DNA of 64,000 bases from a phage. Made by a program: the position numbers and the translations under genes. The first letter of the stretch is position 1. Every line of letters begins with the position of its first letter. Positions 3,045 through 24,354 of this stretch are shown piece after piece. The notes under the pieces were generated by a model. The model worked only from the letters and a program-made list of their open reading frames with translations, had not been told where the DNA came from and did not search any database. Location: the sequence record PQ724393.1; one strand, 5' to 3'.

Positions 3045-4541
3045 ATGCAAATTCAAGTACATTTTGATAATTTTAGTCATGTCCGTATCGAGTGTGATGA
3101 ATCCACATTCTACGAACTTAGAGACTATTTTAGCTTTGAAGCTGATGGATATAAATTCAACCCTAAATTTCGTTATGGGCAATGGGATGGACGTATTCGT
3201 CTTCTAGATTATAACCGTAAACTGCCTTATGGACTTGTCCCTCAAATTAAAAAGTTCGCCGAACAATTTGAATACTCTCTGTGGATTGACCCACGTATTC
3301 TTGAACAGGAAGATATTTCTCGTGAAGATTTTGACTCATGGGTATCTTCTCAAGAAATTTATTCAGGGTCTACCAAGATTGAGCCTCATTGGTATCAGAA
3401 TGAAGCCGTATACAACGGCCTGACAAAACGTCGTGCAATTCTGAATTTACCTACATCCGCAGGTAAATCATTGATTCAGGCGCTCCTGAGTCGATATTAC
3501 GTTGAGAACTATGAAGGTAAAATTCTTATATTAGTTCCTACTACTGCACTCGTCGACCAGATGATTAATGACTTCATCGATTATCGATTGTTCCCTAAAG
3601 CCGCAATGCTTGGTATTCGTTCAGGTACTGCTCGTGATTCTGATGCAATGATTTATGTTTCAACTTATCAAACTGCTATCAAGCAACCTAAAGAATGGTT
3701 TGCTCAGTTTGGTATGTTTATGAATGACGAATGCCATTTGGCTACAGGTAAATCTATTTCTACTATCATCGAAGGCCTAACCAACTGTATGTTTAAATTC
3801 GGTTTGTCTGGTTCTTTAAAAGATGGTAAAGCTAATTTAATGCAATATATGGGTTTGTTTGGTGATGTGTTTAAGCCAGTATCCACTTCACAGTTAATGG
3901 AAGAAGGACAGGTTACTGACCTTAAAATCAACAGTATTTTCCTTCGTTATCCGGATGAATTCACTGTTAAGATGAAAGGTAAAGATTACCAATCAGAAAT
4001 CAAGGTCATTACTAAAGCTACTCGTCGTAATAAATGGGTTGCTAATTTAGCTGTTAAACTCGCTAAGAAAGAAGAGAACGTATTCCTGATGTTTAAAAAC
4101 ATCGAACACGGTAAAACTCTTTTTGAAATGGTTAAAGAGCAACATAAAGAAGTTTATTACGTATCAGGTGAAGTTAATACCGAAACGCGTAATGCTCTGA
4201 AAGTAATGGCGGAAAATGGTAAGGGTATTATTGTTGTGGCAAGTTATGGTGTGTTCTCTACTGGTATTTCTGTTAAGAACCTTCACCACGTTGTATTTGC
4301 TCATCCAGTAAAATCTAAAATCATTGTACTCCAGACAATTGGTCGTGTGCTCCGTAAACATGCCTCTAAATCAACAGCACAGGTGTGGGATATCATCGAC
4401 GACATGGGTGTTAAGCCTAAATCAGCTACGGCTAAAAAGAAATATGTTCATTTGAACTACGCCCTCAAACACGCTTTAGAACGTATTCAACGTTATGCTG
4501 ATGAGAAATTTAATTACGTAATGAAACAGGTGGATTTATGA
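3045..4541 (+). CDS. uvsW: UvsW DNA/RNA helicase (SF2)
   Basis: 498 aa; Walker A NLPTSAGKS, DECH box (MNDECHLATG); N-terminus matches T4 UvsW as recalled. Confidence 0.9.
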   Translation: MQIQVHFDNFSHVRIECDESTFYELRDYFSFEADGYKFNPKFRYGQWDGRIRLLDYNRKLPYGLVPQIKKFAEQFEYSLWIDPRILEQEDISREDFDSWVSSQEIYSGSTKIEPHWYQNEAVYNGLTKRRAILNLPTSAGKSLIQALLSRYYVENYEGKILILVPTTALVDQMINDFIDYRLFPKAAMLGIRSGTARDSDAMIYVSTYQTAIKQPKEWFAQFGMFMNDECHLATGKSISTIIEGLTNCMFKFGLSGSLKDGKANLMQYMGLFGDVFKPVSTSQLMEEGQVTDLKINSIFLRYPDEFTVKMKGKDYQSEIKVITKATRRNKWVANLAVKLAKKEENVFLMFKNIEHGKTLFEMVKEQHKEVYYVSGEVNTETRNALKVMAENGKGIIVVASYGVFSTGISVKNLHHVVFAHPVKSKIIVLQTIGRVLRKHASKSTAQVWDIIDDMGVKPKSATAKKKYVHLNYALKHALERIQRYADEKFNYVMKQVDL

Positions 4542-15330: not shown

Positions 15331-17379
15331 TTACCCTTGGGTGAATTTTTCTGGGGTTTCGTCAAAATTAATACATGAAGCTAAAATAGGCATTATATCC
15401 ACCTTGGTCGATTTGACGAATGAATCAAAAGACACAGGGTTGTCGGTCTCTGTTTCTACGCCTTGGTAAACAACCAATTCACCGGTTTCCATCAATGCAT
15501 CACCATCATAGATAACCGCATTTTCTGCTAGTTGGTCTGTGGTCTGGATATCGGCTTCCAATAATTTGGTGTTGTAGTTTCCTTTATATGAGGCATCAGT
15601 AATTTTAGTAATCTTAACAGTAGTTCCGCGTGGAAGAATAACCTCTTGTTCTGTTGGAGAACCTGACAATTCACCGGGCACAATTACGTTAATAGAGTCT
15701 GCACCGGAAATTTTCCAACCGATGTTCATCATTGTATTTTCGGAACTCGTCAGCATACTTGGAAGAACAATTTCATTATCGCCTTGGAAAGATGTCCCAA
15801 CGCGATAGTCCTGATGAACTGCGGCCATTGCGACGTTTGATACCCAGCCGCCAAAGATAATCGGCTTAAGGGACGTTGATACATAGTTCCTGAAATAAAA
15901 CAATTTTGAGTGTTTGATTTTATCAAAAGTGTTAACATTTAAATATTGACCACGCCAAAGTGTAATATCAGGTGGCAATTTATGGCCAATTTCAAATGCC
16001 GCATCCATATCATTAATTACTTCAATTACATGATGGCTATCAATGAATTCTGCATCCTCTTCATAATAATCACCCAACAAATAATTATTAACATCGGTAT
16101 AATATTGGCCGCAATAAGAAGAAATAGCCTCACGCTGCTCATACTCAAATCGATTATCACTATAACTGGCTGTAAAATGCATAACACTTTCTGAAGCTTC
16201 ATTAGCAAAGTCGGCAACAGCAGCACTTATACGTTGAGCATACTCTTGTTCCCAAAGCTCTGCTGCATATTCTGCCGCATCCATATTAGGAGGGGCCTCA
16301 TTCATTTTTCTTTCGATAAATGCAGCTTTGCGAAGGTTAAGAACCTCTGCACATGATTCGGCAAAAATCTGCATCTGCTTCATACTGCCGACAGGAGCAC
16401 GTTTAAGTTCACGATGCATACGGTTAAAAATTGGGTCAGAGTCTTCGACTCGAATTTCTTCTTTCCACACACCATTTGCTCGCATAGCCGTATCTGCCGC
16501 GCGCATACGCTCCATAGTATTCGTTTCAGAAGGTTGAATAAAAATTTCTAGTTCTTCATAATCATCGATAAGTTCCGCTGTTGCTGGGGCACTAAATTTT
16601 GATGCCTCTGCATCAATCTCATTCCAACCTTCCGGAACTTCATCTCGAGGAGAATACTGGGCTGCGGCTACAGCACGCCTAGAAATCTTGGTAGTGGTAA
16701 TAACAGCCTTATCCGTACGTTTTTCTTCGACTGCCGCTATACTAGCAGATAGTGCTTCTATTTTGGTTACTGATTGGCCTGTTTTCTTGGATACATAAAC
16801 CTCACCAACTTTAGACTCAACCTTAGTGTAAAGGTCTGCATCAATTTCAGGCATACCTTTTATGTCCTCAATATTAGCTTGTTTACGAACCAGTAAAACG
16901 TATGTATGTTTGCCTGTAAATTGATACATATCATCGACAACTTTAAACTTGCCGCCAGTACGAGCCATCGCCAATCGTGCCAATACACGTTGAACAGTAG
17001 GACCCTTACCTTTCATTTTCTTGGTAGGGAACCGGAAAAGAACTGCATCCATTTTAAGTTTGTTTACTTGTTCGTATACAGTATCAAAAATGGTATTCAG
17101 CGTACCAAGTGGGTCAGAACCTAACCCGCCTTTCAGCTCGGCTGGGGTACCCTTAGCAGACAAACTCATCAAAATAACATGAACATATTTGTCGCCAGGC
17201 TTAACCATTTTAATAGCGTCTCCTTGAGACGCATAAGATACCATACGAGCCACCAGATTATCATTACCTGGTGCTTGGATAGAGAAAATCTGTGGAACAC
17301 TGGAACCCGGTTTAAGATTTGTTACTGGATAGTTTTTAGCGGAATCACTATCAAAAACCTCGTTTAAATTTTCCATCAT
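15331..17379 (-). CDS. alt: Alt-like ADP-ribosyltransferase, paralogue 2
   Basis: 682 aa; same N-terminal module; ART motifs LWRGQ, YVSTSLKP, EQEVILPRG; unrelated central region. Confidence 0.85.
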   Translation of the reverse strand: MMENLNEVFDSDSAKNYPVTNLKPGSSVPQIFSIQAPGNDNLVARMVSYASQGDAIKMVKPGDKYVHVILMSLSAKGTPAELKGGLGSDPLGTLNTIFDTVYEQVNKLKMDAVLFRFPTKKMKGKGPTVQRVLARLAMARTGGKFKVVDDMYQFTGKHTYVLLVRKQANIEDIKGMPEIDADLYTKVESKVGEVYVSKKTGQSVTKIEALSASIAAVEEKRTDKAVITTTKISRRAVAAAQYSPRDEVPEGWNEIDAEASKFSAPATAELIDDYEELEIFIQPSETNTMERMRAADTAMRANGVWKEEIRVEDSDPIFNRMHRELKRAPVGSMKQMQIFAESCAEVLNLRKAAFIERKMNEAPPNMDAAEYAAELWEQEYAQRISAAVADFANEASESVMHFTASYSDNRFEYEQREAISSYCGQYYTDVNNYLLGDYYEEDAEFIDSHHVIEVINDMDAAFEIGHKLPPDITLWRGQYLNVNTFDKIKHSKLFYFRNYVSTSLKPIIFGGWVSNVAMAAVHQDYRVGTSFQGDNEIVLPSMLTSSENTMMNIGWKISGADSINVIVPGELSGSPTEQEVILPRGTTVKITKITDASYKGNYNTKLLEADIQTTDQLAENAVIYDGDALMETGELVVYQGVETETDNPVSFDSFVKSTKVDIMPILASCINFDETPEKFTQG
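16669..17379 (-). repeat. direct repeat: conserved 5' ~700 bp of alt paralogue 2
   Basis: see 14620-15327. Confidence 0.6.
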
Positions 17380-19464
17380 TTACCCTTGGATGAATTTTTC
17401 TGGGATGTCATAGAGGTCTATGCATGAAGCCAAAAGAGGCAATACATCAAACCGTGTAGATTTAACAAATGAATCAAAAGATACAGGGCTTTCGGAAGTA
17501 TCGAAGTCATCTTGATATACGACCAACTCGCCGGTTTCCATTAGTACGTCACCATCATATACCACAGATTCTTGAAGCTCATCTGTTGTCATAACTTCAG
17601 CTTGGATGAGTTTTGTATTACTAGATGTTGTTCCATCATTATTAGAAGAATCTGTTATTTTATTAACTTTGACCATTAATCCACGCGGTAGAATAACTTC
17701 GGCTTCAGTTGCTATTCCGAGATTTCCTGGATATACGACATTAACTTTATGAGCCCCATCAATAGCCCATCCTATTTGAACTTTAACATAATCAGGATTT
17801 TCTTTATATGCTCTTATTTCATTAGGATTAATAGTTATTCCTTCTTCATTTTTATCGACTGTCAATTCATTGCGAACTTCCGGTTCTAAAAGACCAATAC
17901 CTGCGTGGGTAACACCAAAACGTCCAAAAATGATAGGAGTTAAAGAAGTAGATACAAAATTTCTGAAATAGAACACTTTATTTTTAACTAGTGCTTCGTA
18001 TATAGGAGCAGTCATACTCTGAGCACGATAAACTGTGATGCCCTCTGGTATACGGTCGCCATTTTCAAAAGCAGAATCCAAATTATTAACCGCGGATTCG
18101 ATATCTTTTTCGCTCATAACCTCATAGTTCTGAGGATTATAACGTCCTAAAAGAAGATTATTTATGTCTGTATATCCTGAACCACAATATTCTCTGATGC
18201 CGCGCTTTTGTGATGGGGTATATTTAGAGCCCTCACGAGCAATAGTAATATCGACCATAATACCGCCACCCACACCAGCAAAACTATATACACGTTTTTT
18301 AATGAACTTGGTCTTGGCGGCTTTCCACTTCGCATCGGTCAATTCATTCCAGAGGTCGTCAGGTTGGCCTTTACGAGTTTTGTTATGCCATGCCAGCCAT
18401 TCACCTTTGTATTCTTCGAAAACGGTATTAATAGCAGAGGCATATTTTTCTAGAGCTTTAACAGATGTCAAAGGTTCGTTTTTGATGGCCGTAAGAATTT
18501 TATTTTTAATTTTCTCTTGGATTTCACCTATACCGTGAAGAGGAAACATTTTATAATCGTAATGCAATTCTTCAGCCGTGCCTTCAGCCACTATATTAGC
18601 AACCTTATTTTTAGCCGCAGGAGAATTGTTATTAGTAACCATTTCCTGAGCCTCAGGGATTAATGGAACTGTTGCAGGTTTATTAAAATCTGCTGCAGTA
18701 GCTTCATATTTCTTAAACAATTCACTTTCATTACGATAAGATTCCAATGATTGGCTTGCTGCAATGGCGCGCCTAGAAATCTTAGTCTTGGTTATAACCA
18801 TTTTATCAGTGCGACGTTCTTCAACCTTAGCAATACTGCCGGCAATAGCAGTTTCTTTAGTAACCTGCACACCTTCTTTTTTGGAAATATAAACTTCACC
18901 GACATCAGAATCTACCTTAGTATACAATTCAGCATTAATTCCAGGCATACCTTTGATATCTTCGATATCAGCTTGTTTACGAACTACTAAGATGTAAGTA
19001 TGTTTACCGGTAAATTGGTACATAGCCGGAACCACTTTAAAACGTCCACCGGTTTTCTGTGCTACCAAACGTTGGATAATCCGTTGGACAATAGGTCCTT
19101 GTCCTTTCATTTTCTTGGTAGGAAAACGGAACATCACGGCATCCATACGAAGCTTTTTAACTTGGTCATAAACCACATCAAAAATAGTATTAATCGCATC
19201 TACAGGAGTAGGGCCAAGGCCACCTTTAAGTTCGGCTGGAGTACCTTTAGCCGATAAGCTCATTAAAATTACATGAGCATATTTATCGCCTAATTTAACT
19301 TGTTTGATTGCGTCGCCTTCAGAAGCATAAGAAACCATACGTGCTACTAATTGGGACTCTACGCCACCAATCTTCCAAATCTGCGGTACTTTAAGTTTAG
19401 GGTTCAAGTTTACTGTAGGCAGTGTGCCTTCGGACTCAAACACTTCATTTAATTGTTCGGTCAT
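17380..19464 (-). CDS. alt: Alt-like ADP-ribosyltransferase, paralogue 3
   Basis: 694 aa; N-terminal module about 65% identical to paralogues 1 and 2; ART motifs VYRAQ, FVSTSLTP, EAEVILPRG; C-terminal tail shared with paralogue 2. Confidence 0.85.
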   Translation of the reverse strand: MTEQLNEVFESEGTLPTVNLNPKLKVPQIWKIGGVESQLVARMVSYASEGDAIKQVKLGDKYAHVILMSLSAKGTPAELKGGLGPTPVDAINTIFDVVYDQVKKLRMDAVMFRFPTKKMKGQGPIVQRIIQRLVAQKTGGRFKVVPAMYQFTGKHTYILVVRKQADIEDIKGMPGINAELYTKVDSDVGEVYISKKEGVQVTKETAIAGSIAKVEERRTDKMVITKTKISRRAIAASQSLESYRNESELFKKYEATAADFNKPATVPLIPEAQEMVTNNNSPAAKNKVANIVAEGTAEELHYDYKMFPLHGIGEIQEKIKNKILTAIKNEPLTSVKALEKYASAINTVFEEYKGEWLAWHNKTRKGQPDDLWNELTDAKWKAAKTKFIKKRVYSFAGVGGGIMVDITIAREGSKYTPSQKRGIREYCGSGYTDINNLLLGRYNPQNYEVMSEKDIESAVNNLDSAFENGDRIPEGITVYRAQSMTAPIYEALVKNKVFYFRNFVSTSLTPIIFGRFGVTHAGIGLLEPEVRNELTVDKNEEGITINPNEIRAYKENPDYVKVQIGWAIDGAHKVNVVYPGNLGIATEAEVILPRGLMVKVNKITDSSNNDGTTSSNTKLIQAEVMTTDELQESVVYDGDVLMETGELVVYQDDFDTSESPVSFDSFVKSTRFDVLPLLASCIDLYDIPEKFIQG
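18760..19464 (-). repeat. direct repeat: conserved 5' module of alt paralogue 3 (more diverged)
   Basis: protein-level conservation of residues 1-235; approximate. Confidence 0.45.
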
Positions 19465-19702: not shown

Positions 19703-21208
19703 TTATAGTCCAGTTTGAGACCAATCGCCAAATACATCTTCAAATGTATCAGCTTCTGTTTTATCGAAACGCCAACCTTTAATAATTGGAAGGAAAATAC
19801 CTACAGTATCAGTACGTCCTTTAGAATGAACCCAACCATTACATTCGCAGTCAGCAATACGACCAATCAATTTACCTTCACGGGCTTGTTTCATAAGAAG
19901 TTCACGGTCTAAATCAGGACGGTCTTCTAATGGAATCAATACCTTTTTACCTGATTTATCTTTCTTATGGGTGGTATCTTTAAAGCCTGAGCCACAGTCA
20001 CTTGTAATTCGACGACAACGTGATACCAATTCGACACCGCCAAGTTTGTTAGGGTCCTTCGAGTGTTCATAATAACCCACTACTTCTAAAGCGATATCGA
20101 TTACTTCTTTGAACTTGATAAGATTCTTAGAACGGCGGTTTTCCCAGTAGGAGTCCATGTTCTTAAGGATAATGCCTTCCAGGCCCTGGTCGACATATTT
20201 CTTATAAACGACTTTAGCTTCGTCAAGATTATTAACCCATTGCGTTTCTATAGGCTCGACACGTGTAAAACCTTCAGCCATTTGTACTAATGCCGCTAAA
20301 CGAACATCGTATTTTTGACCTTTAATTTTGCCTTCAGAATAAACTTCATCCAGTGGAACAAAGTCCCATGCCTGTAATACCATACCATCAGCTTCAGCTG
20401 GAGTAATAGTTCCTTGAAGAGCTTTATTAGCCAAACCATTTGAAGTAGAACGGTCGGCGACTGTCCGGAATTCCTTGGTTTTACTTAATTCCGGAAGTTC
20501 TTCATCAAACATACTAAACAAATCATTAGATGCTTTCGGTTCAACCTTAGGCGTGTGGTAAACTAATTCGCCATCAATCATAACACCATTAGGATGGCGC
20601 TGACGAGCTTCTTCAGTCATTTTAATAAGTTCGGCTGCAAGCTTAGTAAGCCCTTGATATTCATTACCACCGCGAGTAAGGAATGTTACCCCATCGTTAC
20701 GAACTTCAGCAAAACAACGGGCACCGTCAGCTTTTAATTGAGCGAACGCTGGCCATTTAATATTTTTCTTAATTAGAGCTTCGTCATAAGAACTAGCCAA
20801 CATCTGTGGTTGTTCAGGGATTAAACCTTTCCAAACCTTGTTAGCAATAGAAATCGATGCACCACATTCAAGGTCGCGCATCATTACACGACGTAGTACC
20901 TCAGCGTCTGGACCCTTGGCATCGGCGATAATTTGGGCAAGTTCTTCAATAGCAGCATTACCTGTAATCTTACGGGTTGCTAGTGTGAACTCAGCGAAAT
21001 CAAGAAGGTCTTCAAGTGTAATCATACCAAAGGATTGAGACGTAAATCCAGGTTCTGGCCACTTTTTGATGCCGTAGTTCAAACGACGGGTATAAGCCAT
21101 ACGATATACACGTTTCAGAAGCTCATTATCCTTTTCACGGGCAATAATAGCTTCTTTAGCTTTAGTAGAATCAATAGAAGCAATTTCGTTTAAAATATCT
21201 AAAATCAT
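19703..21208 (-). CDS. 30: ATP-dependent DNA ligase gp30
   Basis: 501 aa; adenylation motif KADGAR; size and position as T4 DNA ligase. Confidence 0.9.
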   Translation of the reverse strand: MILDILNEIASIDSTKAKEAIIAREKDNELLKRVYRMAYTRRLNYGIKKWPEPGFTSQSFGMITLEDLLDFAEFTLATRKITGNAAIEELAQIIADAKGPDAEVLRRVMMRDLECGASISIANKVWKGLIPEQPQMLASSYDEALIKKNIKWPAFAQLKADGARCFAEVRNDGVTFLTRGGNEYQGLTKLAAELIKMTEEARQRHPNGVMIDGELVYHTPKVEPKASNDLFSMFDEELPELSKTKEFRTVADRSTSNGLANKALQGTITPAEADGMVLQAWDFVPLDEVYSEGKIKGQKYDVRLAALVQMAEGFTRVEPIETQWVNNLDEAKVVYKKYVDQGLEGIILKNMDSYWENRRSKNLIKFKEVIDIALEVVGYYEHSKDPNKLGGVELVSRCRRITSDCGSGFKDTTHKKDKSGKKVLIPLEDRPDLDRELLMKQAREGKLIGRIADCECNGWVHSKGRTDTVGIFLPIIKGWRFDKTEADTFEDVFGDWSQTGL

Positions 21209-21469: not shown

Positions 21470-22108
21470 TTAACCTCGGGCAATCCATTCAACTGCTGCA
21501 TTATTACGAAGGGATTCGATAGCTGCAATATCGTCCCATGAATTAACCTTTACGGCTAAATTAGGTTTAAAGTCGCGTTCACCACGGGCTAACCAATAAA
21601 CTTGGATATCCATGAGAATATTAGATGCGGCATCACAGTGGTGAGCCAAATCATCGACATAAAACTTAATACGTTTGCCGTATGTATTTTTAGCTCTTAT
21701 GAACAGGTCTTCTTTTGATTCTGAATGTCCACACATCAGAATCTCCTTGAATGCGCCAGGGAACAAAGCATTCAAATTGAATTGTCTATTCAGCAGGGCG
21801 TCAATTGAGTCGCCTAGCGCAGTCACGGCTACAAAATCGAAGTCTTTTTTGAGCTTGTTGATGTGTTTTAATGCGTCCATGTAAGGAGACAGATAACGAA
21901 TAAAATCCGACTGATTATATTTCTCAATTAAACGTGCGCCTAATTCGTCGTCACAATTAAACAGTTCGCCTGGAGATAAGAAACGTTCGTCCTGAATCAT
22001 ATTCAAAATATGTTCTAAAGGCAAATTATATTTCTGTGCGAAATAAGGCAAGCCGGACTGCCAACTTAAACACACTCCATCGATATCTGTTAAGATAACT
22101 GGTTTCAT
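21470..22108 (-). CDS. HAD-superfamily hydrolase-like protein (30.2 position)
   Basis: N-terminal DxDGV motif (ILTDIDGV), downstream K...DD; 212 aa. Confidence 0.55.
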   Translation of the reverse strand: MKPVILTDIDGVCLSWQSGLPYFAQKYNLPLEHILNMIQDERFLSPGELFNCDDELGARLIEKYNQSDFIRYLSPYMDALKHINKLKKDFDFVAVTALGDSIDALLNRQFNLNALFPGAFKEILMCGHSESKEDLFIRAKNTYGKRIKFYVDDLAHHCDAASNILMDIQVYWLARGERDFKPNLAVKVNSWDDIAAIESLRNNAAVEWIARG

Positions 22109-22572
22109 AATAAATCTCTCAATTTGTTTAGGATGTCGATAAACTCTTTTTCAGTTAGTATTGTATCACATTCTGTAAGGTGGCTTGCCATTGAATGCTT
22201 TAAAACCTTACCTTTAGTGGCTTGTAACGCATCGCGAAATCCTTTGTTTTGGAGCGCTGCTTCAAAATATGCATTTGTATACAACTCTTTCCATGCTGCA
22301 GAGTATCTTGAAAAGGGAATTCCAAGCCAGAAAAGCGTCCCACGGTCCGCAGCTCTTGCATAAGCTCTTCCACTTTGCTGGGCGGCCAATCCGGACATCC
22401 CAAATATACGTTTTTGTTGTTCAACATTTTTCACCTTACACCCTTGGAGGAATCCTTCGAGTCCACCAAATTGGATACCATCCATAACGAAAGGCCATTT
22501 AGCAAAGTTACTTAATGCGCATGATGGCCACGGAAAGTTACTTCTAATTTCTAACTCAGACATCTTTGACAC
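22105..22572 (-). CDS. NADAR / YbiA-like (DUF1768) protein (30.3 position)
   Basis: LSNFAKWPFVMDG...E..LQGCK aligns with the YbiA core FSNFAAWPIKVDG...EHYFQAQK. Confidence 0.65.
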   Translation of the reverse strand: MSKMSELEIRSNFPWPSCALSNFAKWPFVMDGIQFGGLEGFLQGCKVKNVEQQKRIFGMSGLAAQQSGRAYARAADRGTLFWLGIPFSRYSAAWKELYTNAYFEAALQNKGFRDALQATKGKVLKHSMASHLTECDTILTEKEFIDILNKLRDLL

Positions 22573-22775: not shown

Positions 22776-22970
22776 TTATCCTCGCTTTAAACATTTGATT
22801 ACAGACAGTTCACCGCCCATGCGAACGTCTTCAGTTCCATCGACCCATAGGACGGTGTAGGCTTCTTTAATTTGGGTATTACCCAATTTAAAAGCAGGTA
22901 GAACCTTGGAAATCATTCCAGGAATACCTATACCTTTTAACTGGACTGTTTGTGATAAGAATAGTTGCAT
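22776..22970 (-). CDS. hypothetical protein
   Basis: 64-aa ORF, tightly packed. Confidence 0.35.
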   Translation of the reverse strand: MQLFLSQTVQLKGIGIPGMISKVLPAFKLGNTQIKEAYTVLWVDGTEDVRMGGELSVIKCLKRG

Positions 22971-23257
22971 TAGAACCTCATCTGAAAGCCGTGCGATTTA
23001 ACATTACCACCATAGATGTCAGAGGTATTGACTTCACGGGCGACACTTGGGTCGATATTGATGTCACGGTTGAGCTTAGTGATTGCCAGGGTATCACGAC
23101 CATTAACAGTACGGAATTCTACTGGACATACAACATCGGCATAGGCCTTAATAGATTCACGAGTAGGTTGTTTGTCGGCAGGAACGTCTTTACCTGCTTT
23201 AGAGAAAACAACTTCACAGAAATTTTTACGAGTATCAAAATAAGTGGTCATAAACAT
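22970..23257 (-). CDS. hypothetical protein
   Basis: start moved to ATG with GAGGAAA RBS; 95 aa. Confidence 0.45.
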   Translation of the reverse strand: MFMTTYFDTRKNFCEVVFSKAGKDVPADKQPTRESIKAYADVVCPVEFRTVNGRDTLAITKLNRDINIDPSVAREVNTSDIYGGNVKSHGFQMRF

Positions 23258-23272
23258 AATATTTTCCTCAAA

Positions 23273-23288
23273 GGAGGCCGAAGCCTCC
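23273..23288 (-). other. UUCG-tetraloop stem-loop between genes
   Basis: ggaggccgaagcctcc; identical copy at 61533-61548; sits directly upstream of an RBS. Confidence 0.5.
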
Positions 23289-23298
23289 ATTTTTAAGA

Positions 23299-24151: not shown

Positions 24152-24187
24152 AGATTTAGAAACAAAAATGGGACTCCGAAGAGTCCC
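24152..24187 (-). terminator. intrinsic terminator
   Basis: hairpin gggactccgaagagtccc (UUCG loop on - strand) followed by AUUUUUGUU. Confidence 0.55.
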
Positions 24188-24192
24188 ATAAC

Positions 24193-24354
24193 TTATGCCT
24201 GAGGCTTACCAAAGCAAGCAGCATCTGCACGCAATACTGCACGAGCACGAGCTTGAAGCTTATCAACTACCTGATTGATACGCTTGTTGGACGCACGCTT
24301 GTAACCAGCGCGTTTAGAGGTACCGTCAACTACTTTAACTTCTTTCTTAGCCAT
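24193..24354 (-). CDS. 53-aa basic protein
   Basis: ATG 24354; MAKKEVKVVDGTSKRAGYKRASNKR...; followed by the terminator; below ORF-table cutoff. Confidence 0.35.
   Translation of the reverse strand: MAKKEVKVVDGTSKRAGYKRASNKRINQVVDKLQARARAVLRADAACFGKPQA

Follow-up and report, generated by a model that had tools for sequence, protein, structure and literature searches.

A 64,000-nt window of phage DNA (PQ724393.1) carries a gene for a NADAR-like protein next to genes for a HAD-like hydrolase and DNA ligase, and raises two questions: whether the NADAR gene encodes an enzyme that reverses DNA ADP-ribosylation and thereby counters DarT toxins, and whether the hydrolase is its functional partner. 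The window derives from a T4-type phage that resembles JS98 (Dhakavirus, Tevenvirinae, Straboviridae). Over the 3.8 kb surrounding the NADAR gene, identity is 97.9% to Escherichia phage fDHCT2 and ~91% to JS98 and its relatives. We read the NADAR gene as the orthologue of T4 gene 30.3, renamed adfN (anti-DarT factor NADAR) by Johannesman et al. 2025 (PMC11825919), encoding an active, stand-alone NADAR directed against DarTG1, and the adjacent hydrolase gene, 30.2, as a neighbor kept by inherited synteny. We give this reading a probability of roughly 80%.

The first-pass annotation, made from the sequence alone, described a 155-aa open reading frame (ORF) with a NADAR core at 22105-22572 and a neighboring 212-aa ORF. 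Both ORFs sit on the minus strand at the positions given for them, the motifs cited for the 155-aa ORF (LSNFAKWPFVMDG and EGFLQGCK) are found, and the YbiA strings used for comparison are correct in the 2B3W alignment. The 155-aa form is a mechanical ORF that begins at GTG 22572, three codons ahead of ATG 22563. The latter is the likely start, predicting a 152-aa protein (MSELEIRS...), because translation from this ATG aligns end to end and without gaps with the 152-aa T4 gp30.3 and has the same E36/K43 numbering. Over these 152 residues, the product of 22105-22563 and T4 gp30.3 are 88% identical. The source protein starts directly at the NADAR core. Among 111 gp30.3 homologues, P13, L17, S18, N19, F20, H123, E140, and R149 are invariant, H123 in the context LKHSMAS, and E36 and K43 are at least 90% conserved. 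E36 and K43 form the NADAR E-x6-K motif (E88 and K95 in the E. coli C7 NADAR); together with H123, the His typical of the phage clade, all catalytic residues that we checked are present.

Membership of the 30.3 protein in the NADAR family was not apparent from direct searches. Its Pfam match is PF08010 ('Phage_30_3', E=2e-65), and the Pfam search gave no match to the NADAR hidden Markov model PF08719 at E<=0.1. The NCBIfam model TIGR02464 scored 13 bits (E=0.09), below its 73.7-bit cut-off, and PADLOC reported no matches for DarG or another defence system. Because direct assignment through Pfam, NCBIfam, and PADLOC failed, membership is shown here through a family profile and the fold. A single-sequence search of the PDB with gp30.3 found nothing; only the family profile reached YbiA. 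This profile, built from nine sequences, matched a sole PDB sequence, E. coli YbiA (2B3W, E=1e-3), in an alignment that spans SNFA.WP..DG and pairs E36 and K43 with the E and K of YbiA SEHYFQAQK. Among the 883 family members, several match PF08010 as well as PF08719 and bear the JGI label 'YbiA (DUF1768 family)'. The AlphaFold2 model of the 30.3 protein, calculated from a 111-sequence alignment, has a predicted local distance difference test score (pLDDT) of 95.2 and a predicted template modeling score (pTM) of 0.90. Foldseek matched it at a probability of at least 0.99 to only three PDB entries, all of them solved NADAR structures: YbiA (2b3w), a Phytophthora NADAR (PnNADAR, 8bau), and a Geobacter NADAR (GlNADAR, 8bat); the next match has E=5. 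The absence of a significant NADAR profile hit, which the first-pass annotation had named as evidence against its assignment, is thus what the direct check returned, but four lines of evidence (the profile match to YbiA, the dual-domain relatives, the fold, and the active-site residues) nonetheless identify PF08010 as the phage branch of the NADARs. Orthology to T4 30.3, fold, and residues are established directly in the source phage.

The function of this branch has been worked out on close relatives. Schuller et al. 2023 (PMC11543638) showed that NADARs hydrolyse the guanine-N2 ADP-ribose made by DarT1. The same paper and PMC11125620 describe a His in phage NADARs at the position held by Glu in the YbiA subfamily and by Asp in the BC4488/DarG1 subfamily; this His, located in the last strand, is H123 in the source protein. 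In vitro, a NADAR of the gp30.3 type from a phage that infects E. coli removes guanine-linked but not thymidine-linked ADP-ribose (Cihlova et al. 2024, PMC11125620). Iyer, Aravind and co-workers described the NADARs of T4-like phages as early genes encoded with ADP-ribosyltransferases (PMC9503650). Genetic and biochemical data come from Johannesman et al. (PMC11825919): T4 and T2 phages lacking adfN fail to plate on DarTG1 hosts, purified AdfN alone strips ADP-ribose from DarT1-modified DNA, and E36A, K43A, and C-terminal truncation each impair rescue. RB69 is sensitive to DarTG1, as a frameshift removes the last 15 residues of its allele, and is rescued by ectopic AdfN-T4 (PMC11825919). A T4 transposon screen (bioRxiv 10.1101/2025.11.20.689424) confirms that this requirement depends on DarTG1. 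In its 'Control vs DarTG1' table (Data S6), exactly two genes are significant genome-wide on DarTG1: 30.3, with a log2 fold change (log2FC) of -7.25 and an adjusted P value (padj) tabulated as 0.00000 (<1e-5 rounded to zero), and 30.4 (log2FC -1.79, padj 0.014).

We read the source allele as an active AdfN orthologue because it is full length, keeps the three catalytic positions, and retains the C-terminal helix. The gene measures 459 nt, as compared to 414 nt for RB69 30.3, and the helix is intact in the AlphaFold2 model (residues 138-151). Judging from 88% identity to the T4/T2 alleles, the protein probably has guanine-ADP-ribose glycohydrolase activity and would confer the anti-DarTG1 phenotype. 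In the mechanism that we propose, the host DarT1 toxin would ADP-ribosylate guanines in replicating phage DNA, and AdfN would cleave the N-glycosidic ribose-guanine bond, freeing ADP-ribose and restoring a replicable template; template restoration would in turn permit phage growth on DarTG1 hosts. Homology suggests that E36 and K43 bind and activate ADP-ribose, that H123 substitutes for the Glu/Asp of other NADAR clades, and that the C-terminal helix 138-151 is required for full activity. The first-pass annotation had proposed DarT counter-defence, or reversal of DNA ADP-ribosylation, among other roles. This reading is right but already known: experiments on T4 gp30.3/AdfN, which is 88% identical, have demonstrated it, and publications on T4 from 2023-2025 cover the family, the mechanism, and the phenotype.

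Several observations pull in the other direction, beginning with the failed matches to PF08719 and TIGR02464 described above. The experimental evidence concerns the T4 and T2 alleles rather than the source allele, which differs from T4 gp30.3 by 19 substitutions, five of them among the final 11 positions of the C-terminal helix. The gp30.3-type phage NADAR of PMC11125620 gave uninfected cells no rescue from DarT1 toxicity. AdfN-T4 does not neutralise DarT1 in such cells and only weakly rescues T5 and Bas25; it is fully effective only during T-even infection, and the authors postulate a further T-even factor for full AdfN activity, which leaves the mechanism incomplete (PMC11825919). Finally, the transposon data for T4 come from one replicate, in which a redundant or subtle contribution of 30.2 is possible.

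Comparison with characterized proteins places the source enzyme closest to T4 AdfN, with which it shares 88% identity, a length of 152 aa, E36/K43/H123, the intact C-terminal helix, and a seat between 30.4 and 30.2 with identical overlapping junctions; the differences are the 19 substitutions and the genus of the phage (Tequatrovirus for T4, JS98-like Dhakavirus for the source). The DarG1/DarT1-associated NADAR antitoxins (E. coli C7; Geobacter lovleyi, 8BAT) have in common with it the NADAR fold (Foldseek probability 0.99), the catalytic Glu and Lys pair, and, as predicted from the T4 orthologue, a guanine-ADP-ribose DNA substrate. They differ in an N-terminal extension, which the source protein lacks, and in a DarT neighbor gene, whereas the neighbors of the source 30.3 are 30.4 and 30.2, with no DarT; moreover, the third catalytic residue of DarG1 is Asp in place of His, and the T4-type enzyme, unlike DarG1, is no antitoxin in uninfected cells. 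In structure, the source protein is matched best (E=5.6e-5, TM score 0.68) by E. coli YbiA (2B3W; PF08719), a member of the riboflavin-intermediate N-glycosidase subfamily with which it has the motif SNFA.WP...DG ... E..Q..K in common. However, the two proteins are only 18% identical, the Glu of the YbiA subfamily contrasts with the phage-clade His, and YbiA does not protect against DarT1 (PMC11125620). A functional parallel within T4 is Tk.4 (AdfM), likewise a phage-encoded homologue of an antitoxin enzyme that is proposed to reverse DarT-type DNA ADP-ribosylation (bioRxiv 10.1101/2025.11.20.689424). AdfM differs in its macrodomain fold, its locus, and its target: it acts against the thymidine-modifying DarTG2, with thymidine-linked ADP-ribose as the inferred substrate.

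Could the enzyme act mainly on something other than DNA? Comparative genomics that preceded the experiments proposed soluble low-molecular-weight ADP-ribose derivatives, such as immune signals or RNA-repair by-products (PMC9503650), and the weak similarity to TIGR02464 (E=0.09), a model for an N-glycosidase of riboflavin intermediates, would fit a YbiA-like substrate; in either case, activity on DNA would be secondary. We consider this distinctly unlikely, as the T4 orthologue clearly acts on DNA and its loss is felt specifically on DarTG1, the Glu of the YbiA subfamily is replaced in the phage clade by a His (H123) that is invariant here, and 13 bits lie far under the TIGR02464 cut-off. Hydrolysis of soluble ADP-ribose derivatives is possible as a side activity of AdfN and is not needed for the phenotype. 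NAD salvage, also raised in the first-pass annotation, finds no counterpart in the locus, where no NAD-pathway genes neighbor the NADAR gene.

A second alternative takes the NADAR and the HAD-like hydrolase as a two-enzyme module, in which AdfN would free ADP-ribose, or act on a soluble derivative, and gp30.2 would dephosphorylate the product; alternatively, gp30.2 would be the T-even factor of AdfN. Several points speak for it: 30.3 and 30.2 overlap by 4 nt in the source phage as in T4, AdfN-T4 is reported to need a further T-even protein, and RB69, which AdfN rescues, possesses gene 30.2. We sampled viral contigs from both sides, taking 80 loci of gp30.3-family NADARs and 65 loci of gp30.2 with a 6-kb neighborhood. 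From the NADAR side, a gp30.2 homologue was found in 18/80 loci, comprising Tevenvirinae-like phages plus a few loci at ~45% identity; the remaining 62 have no gp30.2, ligase, or Alt nearby. From the gp30.2 side, DNA ligase lies immediately downstream in 65/65 loci, Alt is present in 51, and a NADAR lies adjacent or within 6 kb in 31, which represent several genera, leaving 34 without one. GenBank phage records with the two proteins are similar in number (1,511 and 1,448). The genes can also lie far apart in one genome: at 64 kb and 122 kb in Klebsiella phage ValerieMcCarty05 and at 65 kb and 133 kb in Aeromonas phage CC2, a separation of 57-68 kb.

The T4 transposon table points the same way, and more directly. 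On DarTG1, insertions in 30.2 are neutral (log2FC -0.12, padj 1, 71 sites), those in 30.1 and alt have a log2FC of about 0 and are not significant, and those in 61.2 (adfA) have a log2FC of -0.34 at padj 1 (10.1101/2025.11.20.689424). We reject the two-enzyme module because of the synteny counts, the neutral T4 30.2 insertions, and the sufficiency of purified AdfN in vitro, and accord it very little probability. The pairing suggested by the first-pass annotation is therefore not supported as a functional claim: in many T4-like genera the two genes no longer stand side by side, and T4 can do without 30.2 on DarTG1 hosts. We also reject gp30.2 as a cofactor of AdfN, given the synteny counts and the transposon results from T4; as a helper, it would be redundant at most. 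The adjacency of 30.2 and 30.3 appears to be inherited T4-type synteny rather than the sign of a two-component system. gp30.2 is a ligase-linked gene, with the NADAR upstream of it in only part of its family, which hints at a role tied to ligase or nucleotide metabolism.

It is barely conceivable that the NADAR instead tempers the ADP-ribosylation of host proteins or RNA by Alt, ModA, or ModB of the phage itself, as the first-pass annotation had suggested for Alt: the gene is co-oriented with two Alt paralogues ~2.6 kb away, but 66/80 NADAR loci have no Alt within 6 kb, T4 30.3 is freely disruptable without DarTG1 (insertions at 27/28 sites) although alt is intact, and the NADAR substrates named in the passages that we read are DNA bases (guanine-ADP-ribose is hydrolysed, thymidine-ADP-ribose is not), with no report found there of action on protein ADP-ribose, including the arginine-linked form.

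The gene for the postulated T-even factor may lie within this packed cluster. The best candidate that remains is the 72-aa gp30.4, although we regard even this assignment as improbable. It is based on the overlap of the 30.4 stop with the adfN start and on T4 30.4 being the only other gene significantly depleted on DarTG1. A simpler explanation for that depletion is that polarity, or a loss of translational coupling, reduces the expression of AdfN. RB69 also encodes gp30.4.

The 30.2 product itself is a HAD-superfamily protein, as proposed in the first-pass annotation. The motif LTDIDGV is found in the 212-aa ORF, and HAD motifs I-IV are all present: among 121 gp30.2 homologues, D8 and D10 (motif I, DxD), K132 (motif III), and D152 and D153 (motif IV, DD) are invariant, and T96 (motif II, S/T) is nearly so (>=90%). 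The DxD form of motif I is typical of phosphatases. D8 would serve as nucleophile and D10 as acid/base, T96 and K132 would bind phosphate, and D152 and D153 would bind the metal. In the AlphaFold2 model (pLDDT 93), the core is Rossmannoid, and a helical segment is inserted between motifs I and II. With this model, Foldseek returned 145 matches at E<=1e-3, and the best 50 of the 145 are all HAD-superfamily enzymes. T4 gp30.2 is 75% identical over residues 1-194. It has an extra C-terminal tail (278 aa as compared to 212 aa in the source phage), and the tails vary among gp30.2 homologues, whose total lengths are ~196-347 aa. In T4, 30.2 is non-essential, with insertions at 72/72 sites.

We conclude that gp30.2 is a capped, predicted Mg-dependent HAD phosphomonoesterase that would act on a small molecule, most likely a (deoxy)nucleotide. 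Among known enzymes, it most resembles the 5'(3')-deoxyribonucleotidases. An exhaustive profile search yielded 1,093 clusters, and among 40 distant ones the Pfam families Hydrolase, NT5C, and HAD_2 occur in 10, 9, and 8, respectively. The match of gp30.2 to NT5C (PF06941) is sub-threshold, at 12.9 bits with a cut-off of 24.8 bits, and there is a local likeness of DGVcLsWQSGL to DGVLADFESGL. A search of the PDB with the gp30.2 sequence gave only marginal matches, to cdN (E=0.19-0.75) and, spuriously, to TPR and clathrin-adaptor proteins; a literature search on gp30.2 found nothing relevant. cdN/mdN and the bacterial NT5C-like proteins (PF06941; 2JAO, 3BWV) resemble gp30.2 in the HAD core, the DxD motif I, and a four-helix C1 cap. 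In contrast, the gp30.2 family is phage-restricted and always adjoins DNA ligase in the sampled loci.

The features of the locus are listed in Table 1. Every gene of the region lies on the minus strand, and the transcription order is 30.6, 30.5, 30.4, 30.3, 30.2, 30.1, 30 (DNA ligase), the alt.1-like ORF, and the two Alt paralogues; the order 30.4/30.3/30.2/30.1/30/alt agrees with the T4 and RB69 annotations. The co-orientation of the NADAR and HAD ORFs with the DNA ligase and Alt genes that the first-pass annotation reported is therefore borne out. Its placement of the NADAR gene downstream of the ADP-ribosyltransferases is not, as in the direction of transcription the gene lies upstream of both the ligase and the Alt genes. 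The genes of the cluster are tightly packed. The 3' end of 30.4 overlaps the adfN ATG by 8 nt, stop included (ATGTCTGA), an ATGA is common to 30.3 and 30.2, a single base lies between 30.2 and 30.1, and the overlap of 30.1 with gene 30 is 4 nt long; the overlapping junctions of the 30.4-30 cluster recur in T4. Co-transcription of the cluster is plausible. A scan of 15-27.5 kb for sigma-70-like sites gave 28, as compared to 35 in shuffled controls, and says nothing about the 'early unit' assumed in the first-pass annotation.

Table 1. Coordinates and assignments of genes around the NADAR gene in the window.
Feature	Coordinates	Strand	Basis or remarks
Gene 30.6	22970-23290	-	
Gene 30.5	22776-22970	-	
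Gene 30.4 orthologue, 72 aa	22556-22774	-	phrog_2042; arrangement identical in T4 and RB69
Gene 30.3 / adfN orthologue, 152 aa, phage-clade NADAR, predicted DNA (guanine-N2) ADP-ribosylglycohydrolase	22105-22563	-	PF08010, T4 identity, residues, fold
Gene 30.2 orthologue, 212 aa, HAD-superfamily phosphatase, helical C1 cap	21470-22108	-	phrog_420
Gene 30.1 orthologue (DUF3045), 87 aa	21205-21468	-	PF11243, E=1e-19
Gene 30, ATP-dependent DNA ligase	19703-21208	-	PF01068, E=2e-23; phrog_114
Small alt.1-like ORF	between the ligase gene and the Alt-like ADP-ribosyltransferase genes	-	
Alt-like ADP-ribosyltransferase paralogue	17380-19464	-	PF03496
Alt-like ADP-ribosyltransferase paralogue	15331-17379	-	PF03496

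Further details of the locus concern gene calls and boundaries. Several public 30.3 gene calls begin at an internal Met and give 126 aa (e.g., fDHCT2 locus 4079-4459), losing the N-terminal strand and the LSNF motif; these calls presumably arise from the overlap of the true ATG with gene 30.4. Public records of the closest relatives label 30.3 'hypothetical protein'. In another frame within adfN lies a 75-aa ORF (22200-22427, minus strand) with the offset and length of the annotated T4 gene 30.3'. As a conserved overlapping gene, 30.3' is a weak candidate: several relatives have a different codon in place of the start, and in JS98 the frame is interrupted by a stop. The mechanical ORF of 30.1 begins at TTG 21528, within gene 30.2; ATG 21468, one base past the 30.2 stop and supported by the sequence and the fDHCT2 annotation, is almost certainly the true start. 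The two Alt-like paralogues at 17380-19464 and 15331-17379 (694 and 682 aa; PF03496 E-values of 8e-36 and 5e-21) stand back-to-back in tandem, where T4 has a single alt. A strong terminator-like hairpin on the minus strand at 24168-24189 has a 9-bp stem with five G-C pairs, followed by a T run, and lies directly 3' of a 53-aa ORF at 24193-24354. It may be the upstream boundary of a transcription unit comprising 30.8 through 30.

Conceptually, these results add nothing new to the biology of AdfN, but the annotation is useful. Two points go beyond the literature that we read: gp30.2 is linked to DNA ligase in every sampled locus and far less tightly to the NADAR, and the T4 transposon table speaks against a cofactor role of gp30.2 for AdfN, with gp30.4 still a candidate. 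For the source phage itself, the finding means that it carries a probably working anti-DarTG1 enzyme and is predicted to be resistant to DarTG1-type defence.

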